Source of the DNA: Alphaproteobacteria bacterium
GTDB taxonomy: Bacteria > Pseudomonadota > Alphaproteobacteria > Rs-D84
Direction of reading: 5' to 3'
DNA: 64,000 nucleotides
Assembly (NCBI GenBank): GCA_015062495.1
Contig: SUUN01000002.1
Coordinates: forward strand, 159,210-223,209
Shown: positions 26,604 through 54,087 of the stretch, one piece after another
Layout: each line of letters opens with the position of its first letter
How positions within the stretch are numbered: position 1 is the first letter of the stretch
Program-made: the position numbers and the translations under genes
Notes under the pieces: generated by a model
What the model saw: the letters and a program-made list of their open reading frames with translations, nothing else
Database searches by the model: none
What the model was told of the DNA's origin: nothing

Positions 26604-27314
26604 TTATTCCACAATCCCATTGTTAATTGTAATAATTCTATCCGCGCGCGACGCCAGGTTCATATCATGCGTCACAAACAGCATTGCCATCTTGTTTTTA
26701 CGCACCAAATCCAGCAATAAATCAAATACACTGCCTGCATGCATTGGGTCCAGACTGCCCGTCGGCTCATCCGCCAACAAGATATCTGGATTATTCGCCA
26801 ACGCGCGTGCAACGGCGGTACGCTGTTGTTCGCCACCACTCATTTCCCCTGGAACATGCGACGCCCGATGCGCAACACTTGCAGCGCGCAGCAACTTCAT
26901 CGCACGTGCCCGCGCCAAATTTTCATCCACACCATTGGCCAACATCGGCAACATAACATTTTCCAGCGCCGTAAAATCTGACAGCAAATTATGCTTTTGA
27001 TACACAAATCCGATTTTTTTGCGTCGAATTTGTGTCCGCATATCTTCATCCATTTTCTGAACCGCCGCACCATTAATTAATATACTGCCCCCACTGGGTC
27101 GGTCTAACAATCCCACACACTGCAACAATGTTGATTTACCCGAACCCGACGCCCCAACCAGCGCGATAATTTCCCCACGATGCAAATCAAACCCACCGCC
27201 ACGCAGAATATGCAATGGTTGCCCCCCTTCGACAAACGTCCGTTTAATATCCCGCACCGACATAACCGCGTCGCCAGACTGTACCTTTGACAAAGAATCT
27301 AAAATATTCGCCAT
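26604..27314 (-). CDS. lolD: lipoprotein-releasing system ATP-binding protein LolD
   Basis: ABC ATPase Walker A GASGSGKST, signature SGGEQQR, Walker B LLADEPTG. Confidence 0.85.
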   Translation of the reverse strand: MANILDSLSKVQSGDAVMSVRDIKRTFVEGGQPLHILRGGGFDLHRGEIIALVGASGSGKSTLLQCVGLLDRPSGGSILINGAAVQKMDEDMRTQIRRKKIGFVYQKHNLLSDFTALENVMLPMLANGVDENLARARAMKLLRAASVAHRASHVPGEMSGGEQQRTAVARALANNPDILLADEPTGSLDPMHAGSVFDLLLDLVRKNKMAMLFVTHDMNLASRADRIITINNGIVE

Positions 27315-27330
27315 TTACTTTGCCTTTTTC

Positions 27331-28584
27331 TTACTCATTTCTCAACACCTCGACCGGGTCTGTGTTTGCCGCCTTCCATGCTGGGTACAACGTCGCCAAA
27401 AATGCCAACAACACCGCAATCAGCGCAATCCCCAACACATCCGTCCAAACCAATTTAGACGGCAATTCAGACAAATAATACAGTTCCGCCGGAAACAAAT
27501 CACGCCCTGTAATCCATTGAAAGAACTGACGAATTGGCTCAATATAAATCGCGACCAGCACCCCAAATATCGTGCCAAAGAACGCCCCAATCACACCAAT
27601 CGACGTCCCCGATAAAATAAATATCTTCATCATAGACCTGCGCGACACACCAAATGTGCGCAACACTGCGATATCTTTGTTTTTATCTTTGACCAACATA
27701 ACCAACGACGACACTATATTAAACGCCGCCACAATCACAATCAGCATCAAGATTAAAAACATAACATTTGATTCCACCTGTAATGCGCCAACAAAACCAC
27801 GGTTCAAATCGCGCCAATCACGCACCACAAACCCATCCGGCAACAGACGCGCCAAACTTTCGACAACCGCCGTTGTATCTTCGGGATTATCCAAGAACAA
27901 ATCAATATGCGTCACAGAATTGCCAATATTCAAATACTTTTGCGCGGTTTCCAACGGCATAAAAATATAGCCTGAATCATATTCATACATACCCATAAAG
28001 AATGAACTCATCACCGGGTACGACATAATCCGCGGCATTGAACCAAAGGGTGTCGGCGTTGCATTATTTGCAGACACTAACGAAATATTATCCCCCATAC
28101 CAACGCGCAATGCCCGCGTCAACGACGCCCCCGCGACCAGTTCGCCATCTGTGATTGCGGCCAAATCCTTGCCATAAATTCGTGTACCGGTCTGGGTTTT
28201 TGCCGCCAAATCAGACATCCGAATCCCCCGCAACATCGCCCCCGTATTATTCCCATTTGCGGTTGCCATAACCTGACCTTCGGCAATTGGCACAATCGAC
28301 ACAACACGCTGTTCAACCGCTTTGTTCTGTTTCATTTTATCAATCAGAAAATCAAAATCCGAAATCGCGCCATCCTGGTGATAGACAACCACATGCCCAT
28401 TCATCCCAACAATCCGCCCCAGCAGTGTATCATGAAAACCGCCCATGACCGACATCACCACAATCAGCGTTGCCACCCCCAACATAATACCAATCAGTGA
28501 CACCCACGAAATCACAGAACCAAACCCGCGTTTTTTCGCGCCCAAATACCTAAATGCAATTTTCCGTTCCAGTTTTGAAAACAT
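27331..28584 (-). CDS. lipoprotein-releasing system permease LolC/LolE (FtsX/MacB-like)
   Basis: 417 aa; TM1, large periplasmic domain, three C-terminal TMs. Confidence 0.85.
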   Translation of the reverse strand: MFSKLERKIAFRYLGAKKRGFGSVISWVSLIGIMLGVATLIVVMSVMGGFHDTLLGRIVGMNGHVVVYHQDGAISDFDFLIDKMKQNKAVEQRVVSIVPIAEGQVMATANGNNTGAMLRGIRMSDLAAKTQTGTRIYGKDLAAITDGELVAGASLTRALRVGMGDNISLVSANNATPTPFGSMPRIMSYPVMSSFFMGMYEYDSGYIFMPLETAQKYLNIGNSVTHIDLFLDNPEDTTAVVESLARLLPDGFVVRDWRDLNRGFVGALQVESNVMFLILMLIVIVAAFNIVSSLVMLVKDKNKDIAVLRTFGVSRRSMMKIFILSGTSIGVIGAFFGTIFGVLVAIYIEPIRQFFQWITGRDLFPAELYYLSELPSKLVWTDVLGIALIAVLLAFLATLYPAWKAANTDPVEVLRNE

Positions 28585-28597
28585 AACCTATCTTTCC

Positions 28598-29947
28598 TTA
28601 ATCCTGCAAGAAATCCCGCAACGCATCCCCAATCAGTTCATTTGATTGCCCAACACCCGCATTATCCGCAATTGAAATCACACGTGGCGACATAAACACA
28701 ACCAATTCCGCAAACGGCGACACCAATGTTTCCGGCGTTGTCACAAATGAATGTGTTGGAATACCAATAATCACATAGTTATCACCAATGGTCGACGGGA
28801 TATTAAACGAACTCAATTCCCCCTGGCTGGTACGCAGAACAATCTTGGCATCAATCTTGTCACGACCGCCAAAGTCCCCATATGTCCCGGTCGCCCCAAT
28901 CACTAAATCCGTTTCCAATCTTTCTTCGCGCCCACATTGACCAATATCAAATCGCGACTGCCACCCATTTGGAATTGCGAACGTTCCCTGGGATATCAGA
29001 ACAACATTTGCCTGCTGTCCTAAAAATTCCTGTAATGTTTTTGTATTGATTTCCGGCCCAACCACCAATGCGCGCCCAACGACACCCGGGATTGACATCT
29101 TGATATTTTTTTCACCGAACGCCGGCAACAAATTCATCCATACAATCGGGTTATCTGTACGCGGATACACACGATACACATCAATATCCCACGCCAGCAT
29201 ATATTTCTTGCCCGAAATGTCGGCGATTATTTTTGCGACTTCGCGTTCTGTCTGATAATTCCCTTCGAACACAACGGTTTTGTCACTCCAATCTACCAAC
29301 AGATTACGCATATCCGCCCCATGCATTGCATCCAACAACGCCATAATAATGGTCTGATTTTGCGGCATTTTAATCAGCCATTTTCCACGATGCGACAAAT
29401 TTAATTCGCCATTTTGCGCATCATACGAATAATACACACGCCCCATTTTCGTCATCAATTCAACCGCATCCGACAGTTCGCCCGTTGAAATTGTGCCTGT
29501 AATTTTTTCATACAGTGCGCCCTGCTCTACCACTGAAATATCTGTCCCGTCCAACAATTTATCCAGCGCATTTTTCACCGTCAAATCCTTGAACTCATAA
29601 TCTGACACCTGTAATTCTGGCAACGGATCACCCGCACCTAAACGCACCATTTCAATACGTTCCGACGGCACAACCGACACAACGCTTTGATTGTTCCAGT
29701 CCACCTCGCACCGCATTGGCAATTCAACTGAAAACCGACGCGCCGTATCTGTGGTCAACGCGGCCTTTTTCGGAAAAATCGGCACAGAATTTTCATCAAT
29801 TACCAACTCGTCAACAACGGTAATATTGTCATACAGTGGCTGTTCCTGTTGTTTATTCTGCACACACCCCAGCATCCCAAAGATACAAAACAACCCAAAT
29901 AAACTTTTTACAAATTTCATCCCCAATTTCCTTTGCTCTTTGCTCAT
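28598..29947 (-). CDS. hypothetical lipoprotein
   Basis: 449 aa; FGMLGC lipobox; co-directional downstream of lolCD. Confidence 0.55.
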   Translation of the reverse strand: MSKEQRKLGMKFVKSLFGLFCIFGMLGCVQNKQQEQPLYDNITVVDELVIDENSVPIFPKKAALTTDTARRFSVELPMRCEVDWNNQSVVSVVPSERIEMVRLGAGDPLPELQVSDYEFKDLTVKNALDKLLDGTDISVVEQGALYEKITGTISTGELSDAVELMTKMGRVYYSYDAQNGELNLSHRGKWLIKMPQNQTIIMALLDAMHGADMRNLLVDWSDKTVVFEGNYQTEREVAKIIADISGKKYMLAWDIDVYRVYPRTDNPIVWMNLLPAFGEKNIKMSIPGVVGRALVVGPEINTKTLQEFLGQQANVVLISQGTFAIPNGWQSRFDIGQCGREERLETDLVIGATGTYGDFGGRDKIDAKIVLRTSQGELSSFNIPSTIGDNYVIIGIPTHSFVTTPETLVSPFAELVVFMSPRVISIADNAGVGQSNELIGDALRDFLQD

Positions 29948-29965
29948 TGCTATTTGCTCTTTTTC

Positions 29966-30289
29966 TCAGATATTCATAACCCTTTCAAATTCTTCCAATG
30001 TCATTTCATGAATTGGTTTTTGCGATGGCGTTGTTAAATCCCGCACGCGTTCGAACTGGGCACTGAAACGATTGACCAGCGCAACAATTTCCGCCCCAAC
30101 ATTTTTATTTTGCTCTATTAATCTGCGTCCATATTCAACAACATATTCCAACACGTCCGCCATATAGAACCGCCCGACATAGTTTTCCATTGCAATTCCG
30201 CCTTTTTGCACACAAATTGCCGACATCAGCATAGCGGTCTGATTATAATAATTTGCCAACTTGATAAATTGTTGCATATTAATTGCCAT
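29966..30289 (-). CDS. hypothetical protein (107 aa)
   Basis: ORF with host-like codon usage. Confidence 0.4.
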   Translation of the reverse strand: MAINMQQFIKLANYYNQTAMLMSAICVQKGGIAMENYVGRFYMADVLEYVVEYGRRLIEQNKNVGAEIVALVNRFSAQFERVRDLTTPSQKPIHEMTLEEFERVMNI

Positions 30290-30366
30290 GGGCGTTGTTC
30301 CTTCTCTCTTTTTTCACATTATAAAAACTATTGCCCCCAAAAGGCAATTAAATTATAATATAAAAC

Positions 30367-30753
30367 ATGAGAATATATTTTCCGACCATTTTATTATCGC
30401 TTTTCCTGGCATCGTGCGCATCTGTCAACCGTGGCAGCATTGATAACGCAACGGTTCTGAACTGGGAAAACGAAGCGGTCACCACCGAACAGTTCGTACG
30501 CGATCACAAATCTTGCCTGGGCATAAACAAACCATCGTACCAACCCCGGTCCCGGATTGCTAAATTACTTGCCCCAAACCAATCTGGCCTGATGCCTGAC
30601 TGGGACGGCCTGTGGGTCACGTTTCAATCAAACGAATACCGCGACGTCGGCCAACGCAGTCTGATGTCCGTCCCCCGCAACACCACATCAAAATCAGTTG
30701 GTGCATACCGCAAATGTATGTTCCGTCGTGGCTATCTGTTGCGCGCGATGTAG
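30367..30753 (+). CDS. hypothetical lipoprotein (128 aa)
   Basis: LFLASC lipobox. Confidence 0.5.
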   Translation: MRIYFPTILLSLFLASCASVNRGSIDNATVLNWENEAVTTEQFVRDHKSCLGINKPSYQPRSRIAKLLAPNQSGLMPDWDGLWVTFQSNEYRDVGQRSLMSVPRNTTSKSVGAYRKCMFRRGYLLRAM

Positions 30754-30879
30754 TGCGGAAAACACACCTATACAAACCCCAGCCAAAATATCACATAATA
30801 CAAAACGCGGACACTGCACAAACAAACCCAACGGGTCTTTTACGGCCCCGAACCCACATCCCAGTAATGCAATGTTTGC

Positions 30880-30910
30880 AAAAAATCCCGCCACATGGCG
30901 GGATTTGTTT
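30880..30910. terminator. bidirectional terminator
   Basis: aaaaaatcccgccacatggcgggatttgttt. Confidence 0.7.
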
Positions 30911-31508
30911 ATCGTATCAATTGATTTTTTTCATTTAACAGTGAATCTATTTTCCCCTGCAAAGTGCGCACCTGGGCATTTGCGCTTTTATCAAAATGTG
31001 CCCGCACCGCATCCGGCACATGACGAACATTTGGTGCGCGACGGTCAAATTCCTGAATCTTATTTTTATTTGCATAATATTGCCATTTTACATTTTTAAC
31101 CCCTGGGACATCTGAAAAATCTCTAAATACCGTTTCATTATTTTTTACAATCGCCATTATAGAATGCTTTTGCGCCGCGTTATAGGCACGTGTCATTAAA
31201 TCCCGGTTTACTGTACGCAGACTGTCAATCGCCCCTTGGTTTTGCACGACCCATTGATACTCTGGATGGCGCACCAACGAATCCGCAATCAAAGAATCTG
31301 ACACACTATACAAACTGTCAATCTGGGCATTTGCAGATTTAACCTGTGAATCAATCTTGGCTATTTTCGTATTTTGCTCTCTTTCCATCCGTTTGATTTT
31401 TTTAGTGTCATACACCATAGCCATCACCAAGGCCAACACAAACAAAATCCCACCCGTCATAATAAACGGCACATGAAGTTTCCAAAAATTATCATTATTA
31501 TTTTTCAT
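30909..31508 (-). CDS. hypothetical membrane-anchored coiled-coil protein
   Basis: N-terminal TM then predicted coiled coil. Confidence 0.5.
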   Translation of the reverse strand: MKNNNDNFWKLHVPFIMTGGILFVLALVMAMVYDTKKIKRMEREQNTKIAKIDSQVKSANAQIDSLYSVSDSLIADSLVRHPEYQWVVQNQGAIDSLRTVNRDLMTRAYNAAQKHSIMAIVKNNETVFRDFSDVPGVKNVKWQYYANKNKIQEFDRRAPNVRHVPDAVRAHFDKSANAQVRTLQGKIDSLLNEKNQLIR

Positions 31509-31534
31509 GACGCAGCACTCCTATACATTTAATC

Positions 31535-31572
31535 TCGCCGTAGCGTAAGAGAAAGCGGATGGATGGTTCGCA
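31535..31572 (-). repeat. tRNA-flank repeat, family B, ~40 nt 3' of tRNA-Glu
   Basis: aatctcgccgtagcgtaagagaaagcggatgg, ~90% identical to 46751-46783. Confidence 0.65.
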
Positions 31573-31612
31573 TCACAAGGATACCCGACTCTCTTGTGCC
31601 GTTATTCAAGGC

Positions 31613-31687
31613 TGGCACCCCCAACGGGAATCGAACCCGTGTTGCCAGAATGAGAATCTGATGTCCTAACCGCTAGACGATGGGGGC
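31613..31687 (-). tRNA. tRNA-Glu (anticodon CTC as folded), 75 nt, CCA encoded
   Basis: acceptor GCCCCCA/TGGGGGT (G1-U72), D-arm GTCTAGCGGTTAGGAC, anticodon stem TCAGA/TCTGG loop TTCTCAT, T-arm ACGGG-TTCGATT-CCCGT. Confidence 0.75.
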
Positions 31688-31750
31688 AACAATCATTACG
31701 CGCTTTATCTTATACGCAAACACACAACATTTCAAACAAAACTTTCCAGA

Positions 31751-32419
31751 TTATGCATTTTTTCTTGCTTTTTGAAAGTACAGTTTTGAATATTCTGCCA
31801 AAACATCAATCCCCAAATATCGGTAATTTCTTTTTTCCCATGTACGCGTTGCAACATATAACGCCGGCAGAAAACTTTGAAACTTGGTATCTTCCCAGTC
31901 TATGAAATATGTAATATTACAATGTTCATCCAACATAAAGTTTTGCCAAATATCCCCCTGAAACCACCCATACAGATAATCAGGTTTATCCTTTGGATTA
32001 TCTTTCAGATCCTGAATTTCTTTTGGATTATACTTACCAATTACATACAACATATTTGCAATCTGTCGCGCAATATGTTTTCTGTGATTACTGACCACGG
32101 CGGGCGACACATCCGACAACAGCGTTCCGCGCGCAAATTCATACCTGCGAATAACGATATTCTTGTAATGAATTATCTTCATTGTTGGGATTTTTATCGG
32201 CGACACAGCCCCCAACGCTTCAACAATACGTTGTTCCCGATACGCAATTTCCCGCCCATCTGAAAACAGTGGAAATTTGAACACATACTTGTCATTCAGC
32301 ATCACCACAAAATTTCTGCATCCACGACCAACACGCGTTCTAATTTTGCGCTTTTTCATACCAGCGGCATACCTGCGCACCCACAATATATATGCCAACG
32401 TTTGGGGATATCGAATCAT
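31751..32419 (-). CDS. putative kinase-like protein (APH/choline-kinase/LPS-kinase-like fold?)
   Basis: conserved-looking FIDWEDTKF segment; start uncertain (ORF-track N-terminus overlaps the GT8 gene). Confidence 0.4.
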   Translation of the reverse strand: MIRYPQTLAYILWVRRYAAGMKKRKIRTRVGRGCRNFVVMLNDKYVFKFPLFSDGREIAYREQRIVEALGAVSPIKIPTMKIIHYKNIVIRRYEFARGTLLSDVSPAVVSNHRKHIARQIANMLYVIGKYNPKEIQDLKDNPKDKPDYLYGWFQGDIWQNFMLDEHCNITYFIDWEDTKFQSFLPALYVATRTWEKRNYRYLGIDVLAEYSKLYFQKARKNA

Positions 32420-32496
32420 CACCCGCACTTTATCGCGCAACTTTCTGTTTGGTATCACCAGACAAATCACATTCGACAGGAAATGCAACATCTGCC

Positions 32497-33411
32497 CTAC
32501 TCCTGGAACAAGCCTGTCTTGCGCGCAACATCCCACCAATATTCTGAAAACACAGGTCGAATACCGGTACTCCATGGCTTGATATAATCAGAATAATGCA
32601 GAACCACCAAATTATGTTTTAAATCATCCAGTTGCGATTCCGAATAAATCTTGAATATACGCGACCCATGCGACAGTTGGAAATTATACCGCAACGGCAA
32701 AAATGCAATTCGTCCCTTTAACGTAAAATTCAGTACATCTTGATCCGGGTTATAATAGTCGTGTGTTTTGGAATCCAACACCCACTTTTCATAAATATTT
32801 TCCTTGCGGATTTTATCCAAATCCATCAACAAGAATCCTGAATTAATGTACATATTTGTACGTGTTGGCACGGCTGCGATAACATTCTTGCCCAGATCAT
32901 ATTCATAAATATCAATCAAATCACCAAAGAATATGATATCCAAATCCGCATAGATAATTCGCGACACATCCGGCACCAATTTTGGCAACATCAAACGATA
33001 CCACATTGCAACCGGCCATTTACCACGACTGGATTCATCAAAGTCATGATTGCCCACAACAAAATGTACCTTGGACCCCGACCCTTTGACAACACCACGA
33101 ACAATGTCTTTTAAATCCTTATCTACATCCTCGGTCACGACACAGTAAATATCATAATCACAACGTCCCGCGGACGCCAACAACAAAGACTTGATTGTAA
33201 CGGCGGCCATTTTACAACCACGCGCATCAAAACAAAACGCCACAGGAATCTTGGTTGGATATTTTTGGCGTGGAATCCTGGTTTCGGACACAGTGGAAAT
33301 CAATCCCTTGTATCTGATTTTATCACGATTCAACCGACGCTGGGCGCGTGTTTTTCCAAACAATCCTGCGACCACAGAACTAACCCGTCTTACCAAACCA
33401 TATTTATACAT
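32497..33411 (-). CDS. glycosyltransferase family 8 (LPS/LOS core glycosyltransferase-like), paralog 1
   Basis: start set at MYKYGLV; GT8 DxD region IIYADLDIIFFGDL, NSGFLLMDL, HYSDYIKPW. Confidence 0.75.
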   Translation of the reverse strand: MYKYGLVRRVSSVVAGLFGKTRAQRRLNRDKIRYKGLISTVSETRIPRQKYPTKIPVAFCFDARGCKMAAVTIKSLLLASAGRCDYDIYCVVTEDVDKDLKDIVRGVVKGSGSKVHFVVGNHDFDESSRGKWPVAMWYRLMLPKLVPDVSRIIYADLDIIFFGDLIDIYEYDLGKNVIAAVPTRTNMYINSGFLLMDLDKIRKENIYEKWVLDSKTHDYYNPDQDVLNFTLKGRIAFLPLRYNFQLSHGSRIFKIYSESQLDDLKHNLVVLHYSDYIKPWSTGIRPVFSEYWWDVARKTGLFQE

Positions 33412-33512
33412 TGGCAATCCTTTCTTTTGCTGTTGTACTTTTATCCTAGGATATTTTTCTTTTTTTCGCAAACAAAATATACACCGCCCAATTTGGGCGG
33501 TGTATTCGTTGC

Positions 33513-34298
33513 CTATTTTACCCGTTGCGCAATGCCCGGCCATATGATGGTCTGTTGTGCCTTTTTAAAAATCGCCACCGGCAAATTAAAAAGATCCTCA
33601 TCCGCGCCATTGGTTGTTGCACGTTCCAACACCCCATACATATCAACCGCCCGGTGCAAATCATTTATGCGCCCTAATATTATTTTTTCCCCAGAATATC
33701 GGACATATTCATATTCAAACACATCACGCCCCAGGACAATTTTGTAAATTTTACCAATCGTGGAACAATCTATTTTCCCATCTGTATCCCGCAAAAACCA
33801 CTGATATTGCATTGGGTCACTAATTTGATTGGCCCTTACCCCCTGAACAATATTATCAAATTTATCCACGAACCGTCCCGAATTAATCATTTCCATATTG
33901 ACACGTTTCCCATTGACTGCCGCAATCCGTGTCTGCAAATCAGAATCTTTGATATATTTTGGCCGCGCCTTGTCATAAAGTGCGCCAATTGTATCCAACG
34001 TACATGTTGGAATTTCCAAGTGCACATAATCACCATTCAATTTATATGGCACAGACGACAAATTCAACGCCAACGAATACGGCAATTTAAAATCCACATT
34101 TTCCCACGATTGCATGGCGCAGCCAGTGGTACACGTTGTATATATCAAACGTCCATCCGACTGTGTCAGAAACAGACATTCTTCATATCTGTGTGCATCG
34201 CGTTCATACTTGGTTCTAAATTCGATATTTACCGGCCTGGCCAGTGCCTTGTGCTGTAAAACGACAGATGTTTTCAACGGAATATCCAACATTAACAT
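33513..34298 (-). CDS. hypothetical protein in the GT8 cluster
   Basis: start uncertain (MLMLD chosen, RBS aaaaagg); no motif recognised. Confidence 0.4.
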   Translation of the reverse strand: MLMLDIPLKTSVVLQHKALARPVNIEFRTKYERDAHRYEECLFLTQSDGRLIYTTCTTGCAMQSWENVDFKLPYSLALNLSSVPYKLNGDYVHLEIPTCTLDTIGALYDKARPKYIKDSDLQTRIAAVNGKRVNMEMINSGRFVDKFDNIVQGVRANQISDPMQYQWFLRDTDGKIDCSTIGKIYKIVLGRDVFEYEYVRYSGEKIILGRINDLHRAVDMYGVLERATTNGADEDLFNLPVAIFKKAQQTIIWPGIAQRVK

Positions 34299-34460
34299 TA
34301 CCTTTTTATAATCCGCTCTCTCGACACTTCCAACAATTGCATGATTAAAGAAAAACCACCAAAATTCAATACAAAAAAATGCCCCCTGCGGGCATTGTTT
34401 TATTTTGGTCGGTCGCGCACACAGGGGCGTGGGGATGTTCCCCACTAGTGTTTTGGGAAA

Positions 34461-34706
34461 TCATTTCCAAAAATGTTTTTTTGCGAATGCGTATCCTGAG
34501 CCAGTTTTAAGATATCGTTCAAATTCTAATGCCGCATCTTTTGAACTAAATGCAAAATAATTTACCAATTCCCAAGGTTTATATTTTGCTGTATGTATTG
34601 AATATCCCGCATTATGTTGCTTTAGTCGTTTCTTTAAATCATCTGTTTGACCGATGTATTTTTGTTCTGGATTGGAAATACTTTTTATAAGATAAACATA
34701 AAACAT
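34461..34706 (-). CDS. GIY-YIG nuclease family small protein (YhbQ-like), copy 1
   Basis: 81 aa; MFYVYLIKS...KYIGQTDDLKKRLKQHN = GIY-YIG core. Confidence 0.7.
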   Translation of the reverse strand: MFYVYLIKSISNPEQKYIGQTDDLKKRLKQHNAGYSIHTAKYKPWELVNYFAFSSKDAALEFERYLKTGSGYAFAKKHFWK

Positions 34707-34740
34707 TTATAAGTCCCCCTTCGTTAAAACTTCGGGCGAC

Positions 34741-34804
34741 ACTACTTCGCCTATGCTTCTCGCCTTGTGTGGCCTGCCACACGAAGCCTCGTAGAGGCGA
34801 AGTG
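34741..34804 (-). repeat. tRNA 3'-flank repeat, family A, abutting tRNA-Gln
   Basis: ttgtgtggcctgccacacgaagcctcgtagaggcgaagtgtgg; GTGTGG/CCACAC triple allows alternative hairpins. Confidence 0.7.
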
Positions 34805-34878
34805 TGGTTGGGGCGCACGGATTCGAACCATGATAAAGAGAACCAAAATCTCTTGTCCTACCATTAGACGACACCCCA
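34805..34878 (-). tRNA. tRNA-Gln (anticodon TTG), 74 nt, U1-A72, CCA encoded
   Basis: acceptor TGGGGTG/CGCCCCA with U1-A72 (typical bacterial tRNA-Gln), anticodon stem AGAGA/TCTCT loop TTTTGGT. Confidence 0.8.
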
Positions 34879-34964
34879 ATTGCACCGGCAATTATACCCA
34901 CCCCACAAATTTTTTCAATAACAAAATAACAACGTACAAAAAAACCGCCATTGGCGGTCTTGTT

Positions 34965-35522
34965 CTATGATTCTTCTTCTATGTCGTCGTCATCAGATTC
35001 AACGGCATTCAAATCTATTTCCTTGGGAATTCCCAATATATCTTCAATCTTGTCCGATGCCGCATCCAGGTCAATTTTATGTAAAACGGCAAATTCCTGG
35101 GCCATGCGTTCCAGCGCACGCAAATACAATTGACGTGCAGAAAACGTCATCGTGTCCGCCGCACTTCTGCGTTGCAGGTCGCGCACCACTTCGGCCAATT
35201 TCATTGGATCGCCCGAATTAATATTTTCTTCGTACTGTGCGGCGCGTCGCGCCCAAATCATACGTTTTGCGCCGGCTTTGCCCTTGGCTGATGCGATTGC
35301 TTCGTCTAATTTTTTAGCGGTTGTCAATGGACGCAGGCCGGAAATTTCTGCACGTTCCATCGGCACGCGCAACGTCATATGATTGCGTTCAAAATCAATC
35401 ACCAGCATTTTTATCTTCTGCCCGGCGATTGTCTGCTCTTCTATACGCAACAGTTTTCCAACACCCTGGGTCGGATAGACAACATACTGTCCTGTTTTAA
35501 AATCTAGTTTTTTACTTGGCAT
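34965..35522 (-). CDS. CarD/CdnL family RNA polymerase-binding transcription factor
   Basis: start at MPSKKLDFKTGQYVVYPTQGVGKL (RNAP-interacting domain); acidic tail; ORF-track extension spurious. Confidence 0.85.
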   Translation of the reverse strand: MPSKKLDFKTGQYVVYPTQGVGKLLRIEEQTIAGQKIKMLVIDFERNHMTLRVPMERAEISGLRPLTTAKKLDEAIASAKGKAGAKRMIWARRAAQYEENINSGDPMKLAEVVRDLQRRSAADTMTFSARQLYLRALERMAQEFAVLHKIDLDAASDKIEDILGIPKEIDLNAVESDDDDIEEES

Positions 35523-35646
35523 TATTGGATACCCTTTTACGGTTGCCATTCTCTCTGTCTGACATATTATACCATAAAAAAACCTGAAAAACAAACATTT
35601 GGCAAAAAAATTATCCCGAACCTGTGCTCGGGAAAACAAATCTAAA

Positions 35647-36189
35647 TCAACGCCCCAGACGCTTGACCGCCCCCGTTCGACGCAGTGTCGATGCACGTGC
35701 TGCCTCGGCCTTGTTTGTTTCTTTGACGCAAATCCATTTACCATCCTGCAATATGGCAGACATTCCCGCATCACAATCAGGCTTTTCCAACCGCCATGCA
35801 AAGCATGCACCCTTTTGATACGATTGATATGTCGAATTATCCCCACCGCGCGTATACGCACCATATTCTGGGTTCCATTGGCCTGCAACCTCGCCCCCGC
35901 ACCACTTACGCGCGCCCCAACATTCAACACAATTTCCCGATGCATCGCACAGTTCACTTGCCGAACCAGTTGAAACATATCCTGAACCAGCCTTGTCACC
36001 ATTGCCCATCATTTTGCCTGTTTCCAAATCACGACACCACAACTTCTGACATTCTGCCGATGGGATACCATCAATTTTTTTTCGCGATTCCACCAGCACA
36101 TATCCCGGCCCACACGACGTAAATGTTGCATTCGCCCCACACATGGTCGCCAAAACTACAACTGCGGAAATAATAAATTGTTTTATCAT
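35647..36189 (-). CDS. secreted cysteine-rich protein (hypothetical)
   Basis: signal peptide; ~12 Cys in mature part. Confidence 0.5.
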   Translation of the reverse strand: MIKQFIISAVVVLATMCGANATFTSCGPGYVLVESRKKIDGIPSAECQKLWCRDLETGKMMGNGDKAGSGYVSTGSASELCDASGNCVECWGARKWCGGEVAGQWNPEYGAYTRGGDNSTYQSYQKGACFAWRLEKPDCDAGMSAILQDGKWICVKETNKAEAARASTLRRTGAVKRLGR

Positions 36190-36246
36190 GATAAATCCTA
36201 CTTAATACTATTTTACATATTTTATATATATTTTACAAACAGATTT

Positions 36247-36885
36247 TTATTCCGCGCCCTTTTTCATCAGGGACTGCACCGCCAACGGGAAATCAGCCGC
36301 CCGCGCCAGATATGATCCCGACACCAACAAATCCGCCCCCGCATCCCAGCATAACTGGGCGGTACTTTCATTAATTCCACCATCAACCGAAATCGTAAAC
36401 TGCAACCCATACTTTTTACGCGTTCCTGCCAACACTGAAATCTTGTGCAACGCCCCCGGATCAAAGGCCTGTCCCGCTGCCCCTGGCGCGACTGCCATTA
36501 CCATTACCTCGTCAATCTCGCGCAGGATTGGCTTTAACAACGAAACATTTGAATCTGGATGCAACGCCACCCCCACCCGACGACCCGCCGCCCGAACATT
36601 TCGAACCGCGGTCTTTAACCCAGATGTATTGGTTGACAATATCACCGTATCCGCCCCAGCTGCAATCGCGTCCGCCGCCCAGACAACGGGACTCTCGGTC
36701 ATCAGATGAACATGTAAATGCGCATTTGTTCGCGCCCTAATATTTTTTAATTCATCAATTCCACCTGCAATTCTGTCAACATAGAACCCATCCATAATAT
36801 CGATATGAATCATTGAAATCCCGCCCGCCCGAAACATTGAATACGTTTCGGCCCGTTGCATATCAAAACATAAACTGCTGGGCAT
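36247..36885 (-). CDS. rpe: ribulose-phosphate 3-epimerase (in frame with upstream ftsA, no intervening stop)
   Basis: from internal Met MPSSLCFDMQRAETYSMF...; TIM-barrel motifs HVHLM, VDGGI; 212 aa. Confidence 0.8.
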   Translation of the reverse strand: MPSSLCFDMQRAETYSMFRAGGISMIHIDIMDGFYVDRIAGGIDELKNIRARTNAHLHVHLMTESPVVWAADAIAAGADTVILSTNTSGLKTAVRNVRAAGRRVGVALHPDSNVSLLKPILREIDEVMVMAVAPGAAGQAFDPGALHKISVLAGTRKKYGLQFTISVDGGINESTAQLCWDAGADLLVSGSYLARAADFPLAVQSLMKKGAE

Positions 36886-38025
36886 AATTGGGACAAATTT
36901 CTGAACCTTTTTCTGCTTTTTTCTAAACAATTTCCCAATCCAGTTTGTACGTCGCACCCACCGGTCGTGCCGTGCGATATACCTTTGACGTTGTGCACCC
37001 TGCCCCCGCCAAACATAATCAGACAACGCACGCACAGTTGCGTCCACCGGCAACACTTCGGTCATAACTGCGAACGCATTTTCAATAAAGTCACGCAAAC
37101 CTTCGATTTCTGCCCCACCCCCGGTCAGGATAATTTTTGTTGGCCGATATTTTGTAAAGGACGGCAAACATTGATCTTTCAGTTGTCCAATAATATCAAC
37201 CAATATCGGCAACACAACATCATTTACATCCCCGCGCGAAAAATCATATGCCCGGTCGGCGGGCGCAAACCGATCCATTTCCTTGGGCACCAATGATGCA
37301 ACCGCCCGCTTAATCCGGTCGGCAGAATCAAAATCTATATTCAGTTTTTCTACAATTGCATTTGTAATGTCTGTCCCACCCCGCTGAATTTTGGTATGCC
37401 ACACTGGCCCACGATCCGTCCAAATCGACGCAGCCGTAAATTGCGCCCCAAAATCAATAAACAGTGTTGTCTGTTTTTCCGCGCGACAAATCGCGTTTTG
37501 AACAAACTGTGGGTCAAACAAAGCGTCCGCCTGAATATGTGCACCGCGCAAATGTTCAAAAACAGCATCCACCCCGTCACGCGAATAAAAAATCACCCCA
37601 AAAGCAGAAATCAATTGTCGATCAACATGTCCAATTGGCGTCACCATATTTCGTGCCTGTGGCGCATCATATCGCAGTGGCACAATATGCATTGGGAAAA
37701 AACCATCCGCCGGCACAATCTGGGCAATCTGATTTCTGACATCGGTTGGCGATATCTTGTGCTCTCCGCCCCAAACTGTACTTTTTGCGCACATTTCATA
37801 TTTTGAAACACCAAAATTACCGGTAATATACGCTGAATCAAAATGTGTTCCAATCTGTTTTTCCAACTCGTCCACCACAGACTTGATTGCGAACACAGTG
37901 TCATAACTGTCCATTGCAAAGAACGCCGACTTGTCAATTCGTGCACTGCGCACACGATGTGCGATACCACGTACACCATACGTGCCAATATCCAGACACA
38001 AAAAAGACGAATCAAACAAATTCAT
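36886..38025 (-). CDS. ftsA: cell division protein FtsA-like (actin fold), reading through into rpe
   Basis: phosphate-1 LCLDIGTYGVRG, phosphate-2 IDFGAQFTAAS, adenosine ILTGGGAEIEGL; C-terminal amphipathic helix NWIGKLFRKKQKK; directly downstream of ftsQ. Confidence 0.7.
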
Positions 38026-38029
38026 ATCT

Positions 38030-38770
38030 TTACTTTACCAAGATTCGCGCACTATCACGCATATCTATCAGATTGATTTTTCGGCTTAAAATATTGTGAT
38101 TATTATTCAGTGACACCAACTGTCCAATTGCATCGACCGGATTTTGTTCTGGCAACATAATGGTTATTCCCCCCGTCGTATGCAAATTCCAACGTCTGTT
38201 TTCAATCCATTCTAAATAATCCAAATCCCCAACCAGATTATGTGCTGCCTTGGTAATTGCATCAATATCACCCGGTACAACCCCACGAAAAACCACATGT
38301 CCTGCGTCCCGCACATCGGTTGGTTTATTTACAATTGTCCCATCAACCGACAGCGGATAAAAATGTTCCCCATCTGTCCACAATGCCACCGCCGTATACA
38401 TAGACACCTGGACAACCAAGTTACCATTCGGCAATCTACGTACTGCGGATTTCTTAACCCCTGGCACAGCCGCCACACGCGCATTCATATTATCCAAATT
38501 TACCGAATAAGACCGCGTTCCCGGTGCTACTGACACCGCATTTGCAATTGCCGATAAATCTTTGTTATCTTTATCCGCAGTTATTAAAATATTGCGCACC
38601 CGCGAAATATCGCCATGCCCCATTCCAACCATAATAATCCGGGACGCAAAATAAACCGCCAGAACCACGGAAACAACAAAACACAACCAAAACCAGATTG
38701 AACGCTTCATAGGGTCAATTATATCATAAAATCTGCCCCCATTCAAACACGGAAAATAAAAAACCGGCAA
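38030..38770 (-). CDS. ftsQ: cell division protein FtsQ (POTRA domain)
   Basis: N-terminal TM, POTRA-like region; position upstream of ftsA. Confidence 0.65.
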   Translation of the reverse strand: MPVFYFPCLNGGRFYDIIDPMKRSIWFWLCFVVSVVLAVYFASRIIMVGMGHGDISRVRNILITADKDNKDLSAIANAVSVAPGTRSYSVNLDNMNARVAAVPGVKKSAVRRLPNGNLVVQVSMYTAVALWTDGEHFYPLSVDGTIVNKPTDVRDAGHVVFRGVVPGDIDAITKAAHNLVGDLDYLEWIENRRWNLHTTGGITIMLPEQNPVDAIGQLVSLNNNHNILSRKINLIDMRDSARILVK

Positions 38771-38786
38771 TACCGGTTATTTAACT
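38755..38786 (-). terminator. rho-independent terminator after tsaE (overlaps its stop)
   Basis: minus strand: aaccggtattgccggttttttatttt. Confidence 0.65.
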
Positions 38787-39175
38787 TCTATCTTTCGTCC
38801 ATCACCATATTGGGTGATATGCAAACTAATTGTATTTTCCGGCAACATATCGCATGCAATTTGTGGCCATTCAATCAGCGTTATATCATTTTGCATTGCA
38901 TGTTCTAACCCAATTTCGGCCAATTCTGACGCATCTTCGACCCGATATAAATCAAAGTGCGAAATCCCATCATAATTTTGCACGATTGTAAATGTCGGAC
39001 TGGGGACAACCGTATCCGCCCCACGCAGTGTTTGAATTACTGCACGTGCAATCTCAGACTTGCCCATTCCCAAATCGCCATACAACGCAACCACACATGG
39101 CGCGGTCAGTGTTTTCGCAAAATCCCGTGCCCATGCCCGTGTTTCATTGATATTATTTAACACAAATTCTTTCAT
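38777..39175 (-). CDS. tsaE: tRNA threonylcarbamoyladenosine biosynthesis ATPase TsaE
   Basis: P-loop YGDLGMGKSEIARAV; start at MKEFVLNN with RBS aagggaaaaag. Confidence 0.8.
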   Translation of the reverse strand: MKEFVLNNINETRAWARDFAKTLTAPCVVALYGDLGMGKSEIARAVIQTLRGADTVVPSPTFTIVQNYDGISHFDLYRVEDASELAEIGLEHAMQNDITLIEWPQIACDMLPENTISLHITQYGDGRKIEVK

Positions 39176-39423
39176 AATACTTTTTCCCTTTGCAAATCCA
39201 TCCAATGAACCAACGGTTTATATGCTGGTGTTTTTATTTCAGATTTTTTTTGTTTTATTTGTTCCAGTGTACGTTCTGCATCCGCACGCACATTGTATGG
39301 ATATCTGACTCTTAAATATTTTTCCCCTACCTTAACAATAACTTCCACGGCATAGTAATCTTGCCACAGTTGAGAAAAATAAATACCATTTGTTTTAACA
39401 ATTTTATTTACGTCTATTTTCAT
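39172..39423 (-). CDS. hypothetical small protein (83 aa) coupled between uvrB and tsaE
   Basis: ORF, stop overlaps tsaE start. Confidence 0.4.
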   Translation of the reverse strand: MKIDVNKIVKTNGIYFSQLWQDYYAVEVIVKVGEKYLRVRYPYNVRADAERTLEQIKQKKSEIKTPAYKPLVHWMDLQREKVL

Positions 39424-39426
39424 ACC

Positions 39427-41430
39427 CTACTCCACCAATAACAGGTCATCTTCCAGTTTATGAATTTGGTCGCGAATTTCCGCCGCCAATTCAAATTCCA
39501 GGTCTTCGGCTGCATTATGCATTTTCTTGGTCAGTTTTGCAATCTCGCGACGCAGCGATTCCGCATCCATCACCCCACCTGATTTATCATACACAAACCT
39601 GCGTGCTTTATCGGTCTTTTCCTGTTTTTCGCCAACCTCGGCAAATATTGCCTTGGACACAGTTTTTGGTGTAATTCCATGTTCTGCGTTATACGCCATT
39701 TGTTTTTCACGTCTGCGCGCTGTTTCATCCAACGCCGCCCGCATAGAATCCGTGATTTTATCCGCATACAAAATCACACGCCCATTTGCATTACGCGCCG
39801 CGCGCCCAATCGTCTGAATCAGCGACCGTGTCGAACGCAGAAAACCTTCTTTGTCTGCATCCATAATTGCCACCAGTTCACATTCTGGTACATCCAACCC
39901 TTCGCGCAACAGGTTAATTCCAACCAACACATCAAATTTACCCATACGCAATTCACGTAACAATTCGATGCGCTCCAACGTTTCGATATCGCTATGCAGA
40001 TACTTTGCCCTGACGTTATTTTCATTTAAATAATCCGTCAACTGTTCCGCCATTTTTTTTGTCAGTGTTGTCACCAACACGCGCCCCTGGGTCTGTCTGA
40101 CCTGGGTCAATAAATCATCAACCTGGTGTTGGGTGGGGCGCACTTCGCACACTGGGTCCAACAGGCCTGTGGGTCTAATAACCTGTTCAGACACCACCCC
40201 ATTCGCCTGGGCTAATTCCCATTCTGCGGGCGTTGCGGACACAAAAATTGTCTGGGGCCGCAAATTATCCCATTCATCAAACGTCAATGGCCGATTATCA
40301 ATACACGCCGGCAATCTAAAACCATACTGCGACAATGTTTCCTTGCGCGCGCGGTCACCACGGCTCATCGCGCCAATCTGTGGCACAGTCACATGACTTT
40401 CATCAATAAATAACACTGCGTCACGTGGCAAATACTCAAACAATGTTGGCGGCGGTTGTCCCGGTAACCGCCCCGACAAATACCGTGAATAGTTTTCCAC
40501 CCCACGACACGTCCCTGTACTTTCCATCATTTCGATATCAAAGTTCACACGTTCCCGCAAACGTTGCTCTTCAATATACTTCATATTTTCATGAAAATAA
40601 TTCAACCTTTCTTTCAGGTCTGCGCGAATCTGATTCAATGCCTGCAATACACTGGGCATCGGTGTCGCATAGTGTGTATTTGGATACACCACCACCCGTT
40701 CTAATTTCTGTAATTTTGCCCCGGTCAGCGTATCAAATTCCCAAATCTCTTCGATTTCATCGCCCCAGAACGATAATTTCCACCCCCGGTCTTGGGCATG
40801 CGACGGGAACAAATCCAGCGTATCCCCACGTACACGAAACGCACCGCGTTCAAATGCGGTATCATTTCGCTTGTACTGAATATCTACCAACGCGCGCATC
40901 ACATCGCGCATTGACATCACATCGCCCGCCTTTAACACCAACTTCATGCCTGCGTATTGTTCGGGCGATCCCATACCATAAATCGACGACACAGACGACA
41001 CAACCACAACATCGCGTTCTTCCAGCATGGCGCGCGTCGCACTGTGGCGCATACGGTCCAATTGTTCGTTAATCGATGCATCTTTGTCTATATAAGTATC
41101 GGTTGTCGGCATATATGCCTCTGGCTGATAATAATCATAGTACGACACAAAATATTCCACATGATTTCGTGGAAAGAACGACTTCATTTCCGTATATAAT
41201 TGTGCCGCCAGAATTTTATTCGGCGCCATAATCAACGCCGGCCGCCCCAGTTTCGCGATAACGTTCGCCATGGTAAATGTTTTACCAGACCCCGTCACCC
41301 CCAACAGCACCTGGGATTGTTTCCCGGCATTCACCCCATCTACCAATTCTGCAATTGCCGTTGGCTGGTCCCCCATCGGCTGATAAGAACTTTCAAGATA
41401 AAATTCCGCACGTTTCATTTTTTTATTCAC
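39427..41430 (-). CDS. uvrB: excinuclease ABC subunit B
   Basis: 667 aa; Walker A GVTGSGKT, helicase motifs, C-terminal UVR coiled coil. Confidence 0.95.
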   Translation of the reverse strand: MNKKMKRAEFYLESSYQPMGDQPTAIAELVDGVNAGKQSQVLLGVTGSGKTFTMANVIAKLGRPALIMAPNKILAAQLYTEMKSFFPRNHVEYFVSYYDYYQPEAYMPTTDTYIDKDASINEQLDRMRHSATRAMLEERDVVVVSSVSSIYGMGSPEQYAGMKLVLKAGDVMSMRDVMRALVDIQYKRNDTAFERGAFRVRGDTLDLFPSHAQDRGWKLSFWGDEIEEIWEFDTLTGAKLQKLERVVVYPNTHYATPMPSVLQALNQIRADLKERLNYFHENMKYIEEQRLRERVNFDIEMMESTGTCRGVENYSRYLSGRLPGQPPPTLFEYLPRDAVLFIDESHVTVPQIGAMSRGDRARKETLSQYGFRLPACIDNRPLTFDEWDNLRPQTIFVSATPAEWELAQANGVVSEQVIRPTGLLDPVCEVRPTQHQVDDLLTQVRQTQGRVLVTTLTKKMAEQLTDYLNENNVRAKYLHSDIETLERIELLRELRMGKFDVLVGINLLREGLDVPECELVAIMDADKEGFLRSTRSLIQTIGRAARNANGRVILYADKITDSMRAALDETARRREKQMAYNAEHGITPKTVSKAIFAEVGEKQEKTDKARRFVYDKSGGVMDAESLRREIAKLTKKMHNAAEDLEFELAAEIRDQIHKLEDDLLLVE

Positions 41431-48107: not shown

Positions 48108-49085
48108 TCAAACAACTGTTTTCACACGACACAAAGGAATTTTCCCAAACAAATAGTACTTAACATTGTTCTGTCTAATTTTTATCGTCATCAAATTTAT
48201 ACAATTAAATAACAATACTTTCTTGATTACAACATCCGGCATCTGTGTTATGCGCGCTTGAAAAGCCGCATAAAATGGCGTCATTGCGGCATATCGCCAC
48301 CACTGATCCCCACACATATGCGCCCGCCCCAACCACGGTTGCCGTAAAATATAATGAATAATAACAGGATTGGCTTTGGCTTCTTCAACTTCTTGTGCGC
48401 TGTAAATACCCTGCGGAATTACCGCACTTAGTCTATGTCCATCTGCACCACACATATAATTATATTTCAATGGCAGATACAAAATTTTTCCATCACACGT
48501 TTTATTCAAAATATCTTGGTCTGGATATGCAAACTCTTCACTTCTTGATAATTCAATCCATTGTTCATACATTCCCAAACGGCGAATTTCTGCCAAGTTC
48601 AGCATCAACACCCCGCTATTAACATATCCGTTTTTATTACTTGGCCACTTACGCCCCTGTGATGCATCACGTACACCCGCTATAATATTTTGCCCCATAT
48701 CAATCGCAAACAATTCTTTCAAACTGTCGCCAAAACTAACATCCACATCACAGTAAATTATTTTATCCGTATCAGGCAACAATTTAGCCAACATAAACCT
48801 AAAATAAATACCAGTTGTATATTGCCTTACCACTGACGCATCAAAATCACTATTTGCATCCAGGAACTCAATCCGGCTATTCTCATCCAACCTGGCAACC
48901 ATATCAACCAGCTCACGCCGCTTTGCCACCCCCAGATTTTTTGGGACAACACAATATATATTGTATTCTACCTGCCCCTGACCATGATACAACAGCGACG
49001 CAATTGCAACCCCAGCCAACATCCACATATTATTATCAAAACAAAAAGCAACGCTTATCGGCAACTTTGATTTTCGTACCATCAC
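48108..49085 (-). CDS. glycosyltransferase family 8, paralog 2
   Basis: 325 aa; DxD region IIYCDVDVSFGDSL, NSGVLMLNL; paralog of 32497-33411. Confidence 0.75.
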   Translation of the reverse strand: MMVRKSKLPISVAFCFDNNMWMLAGVAIASLLYHGQGQVEYNIYCVVPKNLGVAKRRELVDMVARLDENSRIEFLDANSDFDASVVRQYTTGIYFRFMLAKLLPDTDKIIYCDVDVSFGDSLKELFAIDMGQNIIAGVRDASQGRKWPSNKNGYVNSGVLMLNLAEIRRLGMYEQWIELSRSEEFAYPDQDILNKTCDGKILYLPLKYNYMCGADGHRLSAVIPQGIYSAQEVEEAKANPVIIHYILRQPWLGRAHMCGDQWWRYAAMTPFYAAFQARITQMPDVVIKKVLLFNCINLMTIKIRQNNVKYYLFGKIPLCRVKTVV

Positions 49086-49559: not shown

Positions 49560-50216
49560 ATGAAACTAAAAGCTTTTTATTTTCTGTCATTATGTTGTCT
49601 GCTGACTGGATGTGTTGAAAGCGCAAGGACCAAGTATTTGTCTTTTTATATTGATGTTCCAAAACAAGATCCAAGTCCGTCCAAAGCAGTGTTTTCCTCG
49701 GTTGTACCTACTGACGGTCCGGATGGTGTATGCATATACAAAAATGGTAAGTGCGATAATTCCAATCTAGATTTTTTGATAAAAGATTTTAAGAAAGAAT
49801 TTGATTCAGATTTTATAGCAACATACTATGCTCTTAAGGTAAACGATAATACAAACAAATTCCAAGGCTGTGGATATATGTTTATGGATTCAGAAATAAA
49901 AGAACATGAAAATGAATACGAAACCAAATCGAACAACTTGGTTTTGAGAACCTGGGCAACTTGTCCGACAGAATCAACATTTGATTATCGAACATATGTT
50001 TTTTACAAAAATAAAGAAATCGGTACAGTAAACTTATTGAATTCTGTCTATGACGAAGAAAACAGGGAATGGGTCAAAGAGATTGTGCCAAAAATAGCAT
50101 TGTGTGCAGCCAAAACTGGTTTTAAGGGCGTAATTGGTGGCGAGGAATATTTTGTTGAAAGGCCAAAAAGTCCCTCTATGGAAGAGTTTTTTGATCAATG
50201 TGGTATGGATTGGTAA
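49560..50216 (+). CDS. islet lipoprotein, hypothetical
   Basis: LSLCCLLTGC lipobox; 218 aa; foreign codon usage. Confidence 0.5.
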   Translation: MKLKAFYFLSLCCLLTGCVESARTKYLSFYIDVPKQDPSPSKAVFSSVVPTDGPDGVCIYKNGKCDNSNLDFLIKDFKKEFDSDFIATYYALKVNDNTNKFQGCGYMFMDSEIKEHENEYETKSNNLVLRTWATCPTESTFDYRTYVFYKNKEIGTVNLLNSVYDEENREWVKEIVPKIALCAAKTGFKGVIGGEEYFVERPKSPSMEEFFDQCGMDW

Positions 50217-50218
50217 AA

Positions 50219-53950: not shown

Positions 53951-54087
53951 AAGCGTCACGCATTATAACAACATTTTTTTCAAAAGCAAGAAAAACAAAC
54001 ACGCCGATTTTATTCGTATTTACAATCATTATTTTTTTTAACAAAATAGATTTGAACCCAACCCTAATTTATGGTATCATACACCTT

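Follow-up and report, generated by a model that had tools for sequence, protein, structure and literature searches.

An open reading frame joining FtsA to a ribulose-phosphate 3-epimerase domain is conserved among Candidatus Enterousia and related Alphaproteobacteria of the order Rs-D84

Introduction

A stretch of 64,000 nucleotides from the Alphaproteobacteria bacterium assembly GCA_015062495.1 (contig SUUN01000002.1, positions 159,210 to 223,209; hereafter, the window) carries a single open reading frame (ORF), located at 36247..38025 on the minus strand, in which the division gene ftsA runs uninterrupted into rpe, the gene for ribulose-phosphate 3-epimerase (Rpe). FtsA provides the chief membrane anchor of the bacterial division ring and is considered to need its free C-terminal helix in order to work. 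Genomes of the GTDB order Rs-D84, to which the window belongs, measure 0.75-1.0 Mb and display a very limited metabolism, from which a partner-dependent lifestyle has been inferred (PMC12306168). The paper describing these genomes counts the non-oxidative pentose-phosphate genes, including that of Rpe, as present, and the fusion is unmentioned in it (PMC12306168); likewise, full-text literature searches retrieved no paper joining FtsA, epimerase and fusion. In this work, we describe the fused gene (ftsA::rpe), its locus and its distribution, and we weigh the explanations for its architecture.

Materials and methods

All coordinates are positions in the window. The 41-sequence alignment comprised the window sequence and 40 related loci, obtained by scanning the GTDB species with one genome each. 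Shine-Dalgarno (SD) cores were scored by a crude rule, namely the presence of GGAG, GAGG or AGGA at positions -18..-4 of the codon under consideration. The FtsA half (amino acids, aa, 1-379) was searched with phmmer against 1.84 billion (1.84e9) cluster representatives, and 20 of the long matches were inspected individually for a C-terminal domain. Ratios of nonsynonymous to synonymous substitution rates (dN/dS) in Enterousia were computed between moderately diverged pairs, separately for the FtsA core, the tail and Rpe. The structure of the full protein was modeled with AlphaFold2 (AF2) and compared with the PDB using Foldseek. Catalytic positions of Rpe are given in human numbering.

Results

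The fused gene and its locus

The ORF comprises 592 codons including its TAA stop, internal stops are absent, and the predicted product has a mass of 65.3 kDa and an isoelectric point of 8.6. A preliminary description of this DNA had reported that no stop codon lies between ftsA and rpe, and this was borne out, the peptide ...NWIGKLFRKKQKKVQKFVPIMPSSLCFDM... being present in the ORF. Along the polypeptide, all on the minus strand, the FtsA core (aa 1-341, 37003..38025), recognized by its AF2 model, Foldseek matches and nucleotide-binding motifs, is followed by a tail helix (aa 343-367, GAQRQRYIARHDRWVRRTNWIGKLF, 36925..36999), predicted by AF2, by a polybasic connector that is predicted to be disordered (RKKQKKVQK, aa 368-376, 36898..36924), and by the (beta/alpha)8 barrel of Rpe (aa 377-587, 36265..36897), identified with PF00834, NF004076 and Foldseek. 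The codon of Met381 (36883..36885), the supposed start of rpe, lies within the first strand of the barrel.

Immediately upstream lies ftsQ (38030..38770, minus strand, 246 aa; PF03799 FtsQ_DivIB_C, E=3.4e-8), whose TAA stop is only 4 nt ahead of the ftsA::rpe ATG, so that both genes are probably translationally coupled. An FtsQ homologue was found directly upstream of the fusion start in all 40 related loci, and ftsQ holds the same position in the distant relatives L080, L082, L086 and L088, the last of which displays the order ftsI-ftsQ-ftsA::rpe. The downstream neighbor varies: convergent tsaE-uvrB in most of the 40 Enterousia loci, and an ORF of 180 codons (orf180) followed by carD only in the closest relatives of the window. 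A tblastn search of the window and the 41 loci detected no ftsZ and no further copy of ftsA or rpe; for ftsZ, the negative result covers the flanks of all related loci (up to 6-10 kb per side). The division gene cluster is fragmented in the window (26604-41430) and in L080, L086 and L088, with ftsQ preceded by tsaE and uvrB instead of ddl/mur, and ftsA without ftsZ after it.

Distribution, age and selection

The protein search recovered more than 100 full-length clusters of 584-598 aa with 72-99% identity, all carrying both Pfam domains and originating from assemblies in ENA, Logan, NCBI and JGI; one of the sequences recurred identically on 83 contigs. Overall, the same fused architecture occurs in hundreds of independent assemblies produced by different assemblers. 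In the scan of GTDB species, full-length matches were found in 40 species-level loci, with identities from 98% down to 47%, and when these were translated individually each proved to be a single open frame of 589-596 codons. Comparison of the 3' ends of ftsA in relatives, suggested in the preliminary description, thus gave a uniform answer, with 40 of 40 running on into rpe without a stop. The organisms concerned are uncultured; their loci bear the names of Candidatus Enterousia or of Alphaproteobacteria metagenome-assembled genomes (MAGs) and stem from the guts of humans, ruminants, birds and termites. Two loci with the fusion at 47% identity, L035 and L038, are labeled 'uncultured Muribaculaceae', and their gene content suggests that this is probably a binning or taxonomy error. 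In one cluster (P0121) the Rpe end is frameshifted in a manner typical of assembly error, and its junction is still fused.

All three parts of the protein are under strong purifying selection in Enterousia, namely the FtsA core (dN/dS 0.03-0.06), the tail (0.05-0.16) and Rpe (0.05-0.08). When the FtsA half was used as the query, all non-fragment matches above about 65 bits were proteins of 542-623 aa, and ordinary FtsA proteins of 390-440 aa appeared only below about 60 bits. The 20 long matches inspected all carry an Rpe-like C-terminal domain, with identities in the FtsA half down to 24%, and the source names of these deep members include 'Alphaproteobacteria bacterium' and 'Rickettsiales bacterium' MAGs. 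Neither this search nor the 40 loci yielded a close relative without the fusion. From the length of the matches above about 65 bits and the Rpe domain in 20 of 20, it follows that the fusion is ancient and marks Rs-D84.

The FtsA half

Profile searches with Pfam and NCBIfam placed a divergent FtsA in the first ~325 residues, the match to PF14450 (FtsA) reaching 35.9 bits against a cut-off of 31.8. The AF2 model displays an overall predicted local distance difference test (pLDDT) score of 91.5, mostly above 90 across aa 1-341, and an actin-like (ASKHA) fold with the extra subdomain typical of FtsA (1C in place of 1B). The top 19 Foldseek matches were all FtsA, with template modeling (TM) scores normalized to the target of 0.66-0.74, and included the structures 3WT0, 7Q6F, 1E4G, 4A2A and 7Q6D. 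The species represented among these 19 were S. aureus, V. maritimus, T. maritima, X. poinarii and E. coli; PilM matches scored lower (TM 0.52-0.63). Together with the presence of ftsQ immediately upstream, the structure confirms the earlier assignment of the N-terminal half to FtsA.

The nucleotide-binding motifs of FtsA are recognizable as LDIGT (aa 11-15), DFG..T (aa 191-197) and TGGGA (aa 301-305), and the phosphate-1, phosphate-2 and adenosine motifs are kept across the 41 Enterousia sequences. Among the deep members, precomputed Pfam matches to SHS2_FTSA exist for P0146 (unmarked) and P0144 (weak). In the group formed by P0144, P0152 and P0155, two aspartates of the FtsA motifs are also lost.

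The tail between the FtsA core and the barrel

The FtsA core ends in ...DYVW (aa 340), and 38-40 residues then reach the barrel in all 41 sequences. This tail carries a net charge of +7 to +13 in each of them, and its identity to the window sequence is 18-76%, except in the nearest relative L001 (95%). AF2 predicted a helix at aa 343-367, along which pLDDT drops from ~91 to ~52, followed by a basic stretch predicted to be disordered (aa 368-374, pLDDT below 50); at most positions of columns 369-376, Lys or Arg accounts for 66-95% of the residues. The conserved hydrophobic columns 349, 350, 356, 363, 366 and 367 fall on one face of the helix, with Lys/Arg elsewhere, a pattern that would be expected of an amphipathic helix binding the membrane, with a polybasic patch after it. 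On the model, aa 343-367 are a plausible candidate for a membrane-binding or packing helix.

The preliminary description had presented this segment as the amphipathic membrane-targeting helix of FtsA. The helix itself is predicted by AF2; its amphipathicity is not statistically significant, and the profile alignment to E. coli FtsA is confident only over aa 84-324, which does not establish homology to the membrane-targeting sequence (MTS) of that protein. An extension of the tblastn alignment to residue 420 of E. coli FtsA is not to be over-read. The candidate helix is internal, with the Rpe domain after it, and not at the extreme C-terminus as in canonical FtsA. Such a position, which had been regarded as functionally odd, is indeed unusual for FtsA, but it is the conserved state of the lineage rather than an oddity of one genome.

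The Rpe half

The Rpe domain extends over about aa 377-587, and the profile searches assigned aa 379-587 to it. PF00834 (Ribul_P_3_epim) matched aa 381-573 with E=2e-40, covering profile positions 3-197 of 198, and the subfamily model NF004076 scored 170.1 bits against a cut-off of 165. Foldseek aligned the barrel with S. pyogenes Rpe (2FLI) at a TM score of 0.93, a root-mean-square deviation of about 1.4 A (1.3-1.7) and 36% identity. Known Rpe enzymes form dimers or trimers of dimers; their metal ligands are two His and two Asp, two Asp serve as the acid/base catalysts, and three Met cushion the site (PMC9978339). The equivalents of H35, D37, H70, D175, M39, M72 and M141 are invariant in the 41 Enterousia sequences, and metal ligands, acid/base Asp pair and Met cushion are also intact in 18 of 20 deep representatives. 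Based on this conservation, the fused barrel of the window is probably an active epimerase.

The junction codon

Codon 381 (36885-36883) is ATG in 15, TTG in 17 and TTA in 9 of the 41 sequences. An SD core precedes it in none of them, in agreement with the earlier remark that no SD sequence stands before the rpe ATG (36885); in the window, none lies within -18..-4. In the window, this crude rule finds an SD core for just 8 of 49 long ORFs, so the absence says little, and the codon evidence is the stronger. Residue 381 belongs to the conserved motif F-[IV]-P-[IV]-[ML]-P-S of the first barrel strand, which aligns with IAPSIL of E. coli Rpe and IGPSIL of human Rpe, with a Ser that varies neither here nor in these two references. 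Apart from residue 388, which lies past this strand, no nearby Met is invariant. Since TTA, which cannot initiate, occupies codon 381 in 9 of 41 sequences, and the only invariant nearby Met comes after the strand, separate initiation of Rpe at this codon is, on the codon evidence, not a conserved feature. The preliminary description's option of tight leaderless coupling, like separate initiation at the ATG, is accordingly left unsupported by the codon usage, the missing SD cores and an ordinary TTG bias.

Enrichment of TTG at codon 381 was also considered as a sign of start-codon selection and discarded: it is significant against all Leu codons (P=0.0005) but not against TTA plus TTG (P=0.09), and the bias is matched by other columns alternating between Met and Leu, such as residue 566. 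A scan for promoters and terminators at the junction revealed nothing above background, with 15 promoter-like sites against 9.3+-3.1 in shuffled sequences.

A lineage with a degenerate active site

Two of the deep representatives have lost the catalytic residues of Rpe. In P0131, H35N and H70N substitutions are present, no Asp aligns at position 175, and the PGxGG loop is deleted; in P0134, H35Y, D37T and D175C are accompanied by altered phosphate-binding loops. P0134 is represented by 10 full-length alleles from assemblies made independently of one another, the longest contig reaching 198 kb, and its locus displays the usual ftsQ overlap and the usual neighbors; for these reasons it is not an artefact. 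Its gene has a GC content of 20%, and the chance of 211 codons staying open at that composition is 6e-10.

P0285, which is 75% identical to P0134, shares H35Y and D175C, and the two are separated by a synonymous divergence (dS) of 0.43-0.50. Between them, amino-acid identity is 81% in the Rpe-like domain, with a dN/dS of 0.20, against 74% and 0.36 in the FtsA core. Nonsynonymous divergence (dN) in the Rpe-like domain is lower than dS (Fisher P=3e-12), and the nonsynonymous-to-synonymous ratio of this domain is below that of the FtsA core (P=0.037). Within the species, the four P0134 alleles compared hold too few substitutions for a convincing dN/dS. The AF2 model of P0134 displays a complete barrel (pLDDT 89), with the caveat that active homologues are part of the alignment behind it. 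With the catalytic residues gone and the domain still under tighter constraint than the FtsA core, the substitution pattern points to a non-catalytic, structural role of the barrel in this 20%-GC sublineage, and possibly in all members. The P0134/P0285 lineage corresponds to loci L080-L085 and L089, in which the FtsA half is motif-degenerate yet under purifying selection.

Discussion

Our results indicate, with a probability that we place at about 0.88, that ftsA::rpe is a genuine, ancient and vertically inherited fusion, made as one polypeptide of ~65 kDa from the ftsA start, and that it constitutes the normal FtsA of Rs-D84 (Candidatus Enterousia and relatives). A genuine fusion was among the options raised in the preliminary description, and it is the one strongly supported by the 40 open frames and by purifying selection on all three parts. 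What is new here is the architecture, its conservation across the order and the retained pseudo-enzyme; the parts themselves are well known.

Under this interpretation, translation from the ftsA start, coupled to that of ftsQ, would yield an FtsA core, a cationic tail of 38 aa and an Rpe barrel. The protein would act as the FtsA of the cell at the divisome and, in most lineages including that of the window, as an epimerase too. The former C-terminal tail of FtsA would now serve as an interdomain linker, probably still lying on the anionic inner face of the membrane. Judging from TIM-barrel geometry, a tether at the N-terminal strand of the barrel, opposite the active site, should leave catalysis possible. 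Since Rpe enzymes are obligate dimers or hexamers, the fused barrel probably links FtsA molecules together, and such cross-linking would explain why the barrel was retained after its catalytic death. The gene may plausibly have arisen in the course of genome reduction, when neighboring ftsA and rpe genes would have lost the stop codon and spacer that separated them.

Among the alternatives, the one deserving most attention, still an unlikely one, is that a single ORF yields two proteins, free Rpe and free FtsA being made as well, by initiation at codon 381 or by proteolysis of the connector. Cleavage in the disordered basic stretch is possible, as is internal initiation in the 32 of 41 species with ATG or TTG: the species of the window itself has ATG there, residues 368-374 are disordered and rich in Lys/Arg, and thus protease-accessible, and the rarity of SD cores among the long ORFs means that their absence is no bar to initiation. 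Nevertheless, the nine species with TTA cannot initiate at this codon, none of the 41 sequences has an SD core, the TTG bias is that of other Met/Leu columns, and no promoter-like site is prominent near the junction. Moreover, a tail of fixed length (38-40 aa) with a dN/dS of 0.05-0.16 suits a functional tether better than a cleavage spacer, and a dead barrel under selection is hard to explain if its only use were as a released enzyme. A different proposal, which we consider very improbable, is that the N-terminal half is not the divisome FtsA but another member of the ASKHA proteins, for example a sugar kinase or a PilM-like protein, whose fusion to Rpe would serve metabolism. The match to the ftsA equivalog model TIGR01174 (53.3 bits) is indeed far under its cut-off of 175.85, models of PilM and MreB also match, and identity to E. 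coli FtsA is only ~20%. Against this, the best structural matches are the FtsA proteins of five species, above PilM; the gene always stands right after ftsQ, and after ftsI-ftsQ in L088; SHS2_FTSA is matched in P0146 and P0144; no sugar-kinase family was matched in the Pfam and NCBIfam profile searches; and no second ftsA was detected within the window or the flanks of the 40 loci (up to 6 kb per side). The probability of an artefact or of gene decay, in which the stop would have been lost through a sequencing or assembly error or a recent mutation, leaving a chimeric call or an incipient pseudogene as the preliminary description had contemplated, is close to nil. Beyond the unusual architecture itself and P0121, whose Rpe end is frameshifted yet whose junction is fused, nothing speaks for it, and it is refuted by the identical architecture in 40 of 40 species genomes and hundreds of independent assemblies, by strong purifying selection throughout (dN/dS 0.03-0.16), and by the confident folding of both domains (pLDDT above 90).

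Some observations count against this interpretation of the fusion. The Rpe domain is atypical, its match to the equivalog model TIGR01163 (146.8 bits) lying under the 212.6 cut-off, and it has PGAAG instead of PGFGG in the phosphate loop and DGFYVDR instead of DGHFVPN; on these grounds the substrate could differ from that of known Rpe enzymes. With regard to the tail, its hydrophobic moment (0.72) is not higher than that of shuffled tails (0.66+-0.14), a test that does not discriminate because any order of so many Lys/Arg gives a high moment; the column periodicity peaks at 100-110 degrees, yet with a permutation P of 0.125; the profile alignment to E. coli FtsA is confident up to aa 324 only; and a deep subgroup (P0147, P0150, P0156 and P0157) has a short Pro/Arg linker and no helix. 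Finally, the nucleotide-binding motifs of FtsA are lost too in P0134 (DIG to SIA, DxG to NLE, GGG to GS), so the whole protein is unusual and its lineage may not represent the clade. We put forward only tentatively, and at somewhat less than even odds, that the barrel of Rs-D84 is an integral structural module on which FtsA function depends, perhaps a hub for oligomerization that cross-links FtsA at the membrane or a sensor of sugar phosphates through which division is tied to the supply of the pentose-phosphate pathway. If true, this would explain the strong constraint that persists after the catalytic residues were destroyed.

Compared with canonical FtsA (E. coli, T. maritima, S. aureus and V. 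maritimus; 7Q6D, 1E4G/4A2A, 3WQT and 7Q6F), the fusion shares the fold, the extra subdomain, the position after ftsQ and the nucleotide-binding motifs. Its core is followed by a basic helix with hydrophobic residues at the end (...WIGKLF), similar to the C-terminal helix that targets canonical FtsA to the membrane; canonical FtsA stops there, whereas the fusion adds ~10 basic residues and an enzyme domain of 210 aa. It further differs in lacking ftsZ after the gene, in its low identity and sub-cut-off TIGR01174 score, and in the loss of ATP-binding aspartates in some sublineages. With stand-alone Rpe (PF00834; 2FLI, 3OVP and 1RPX), it shares the complete barrel, the His/Asp ligands, the Asp pair and the three-Met cushion; unlike it, the fused domain has no start codon of its own, is joined to FtsA at the first strand, departs in the two motifs and the TIGR01163 score mentioned above, and is kept without catalytic residues in the P0131, P0134 and P0285 lineages. 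In PilM-PilN fusions and other actin-fold proteins with C-terminal extensions (weak matches P0204, P0205, P0248 and P0254), an ATPase of the FtsA/PilM family is likewise fused to a C-terminal partner; in PilM-PilN this partner is the normal membrane partner PilN, whereas in ftsA::rpe it is an unrelated metabolic enzyme.

Moonlighting metabolic enzymes regulate division in several bacteria, including UgtP in B. subtilis, OpgH in E. coli, and KidO and GdhZ in Caulobacter; these are separate polypeptides that act on FtsZ by reversible binding, and KidO is an enzyme-like protein with a degenerate active site. The fusion resembles them in that a protein of central metabolism or derived from an enzyme is physically tied to the division machinery, but its enzyme is a covalent, permanent part of FtsA and is not known to have a regulatory effect. 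The fusion suggests that the C-terminus of FtsA tolerates, and may exploit, a large cargo, namely a 210-aa enzyme kept after its chemistry was lost, and it represents a natural 'Rosetta-stone' connection of division with central carbon metabolism. Annotation is affected as well: the NCBI names these proteins only 'ribulose-phosphate 3-epimerase', so that these genomes seem to lack FtsA, and Rpe is counted in metabolic reconstructions as a usual soluble enzyme.

Other observations in the window

Downstream of the fusion by 57 nt, orf180 (35647-36189, minus strand) encodes a Cys-rich protein of 180 aa with an N-terminal hydrophobic segment and no Pfam match, found only in the closest relatives L001, L002 and L004; a strong terminator-like hairpin follows it (35633-35614), and co-transcription with the fusion is possible. 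The adjacent 345-aa ORF (34965-36002, minus strand) resembles CarD only from about aa 165 onwards (CarD_TRCF_RID 168-225, CarD_C 241-319), and because its N-terminal extension overlaps orf180 and the terminator, translation of carD probably begins at the Met near 35525 instead. Next to a tRNA-Gln gene (34805-34878, minus strand) lies an ORF (34461-34706, minus strand) for a small, stand-alone protein of 81 aa with a GIY-YIG nuclease domain. Further away, an AAA_15/AAA_21 ATPase of the OLD or abortive-infection type (51572-52885, plus strand) neighbors ORFs without Pfam match (49560-50842), and these genes might serve phage defence amid surroundings that are otherwise housekeeping.

Two family-8 glycosyltransferases are encoded at 32497-33543 and 48108-49085, both on the minus strand. 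Genes for lipopolysaccharide (LPS) transport comprise LptF/G (787-1863), LptC (55389-55868) and the ATPase of an ABC transporter, probably LptB (54664-55392), together with PagL (54052-54645); this reduced genome thus retains outer-membrane LPS machinery despite the reported loss of lipid biosynthesis.

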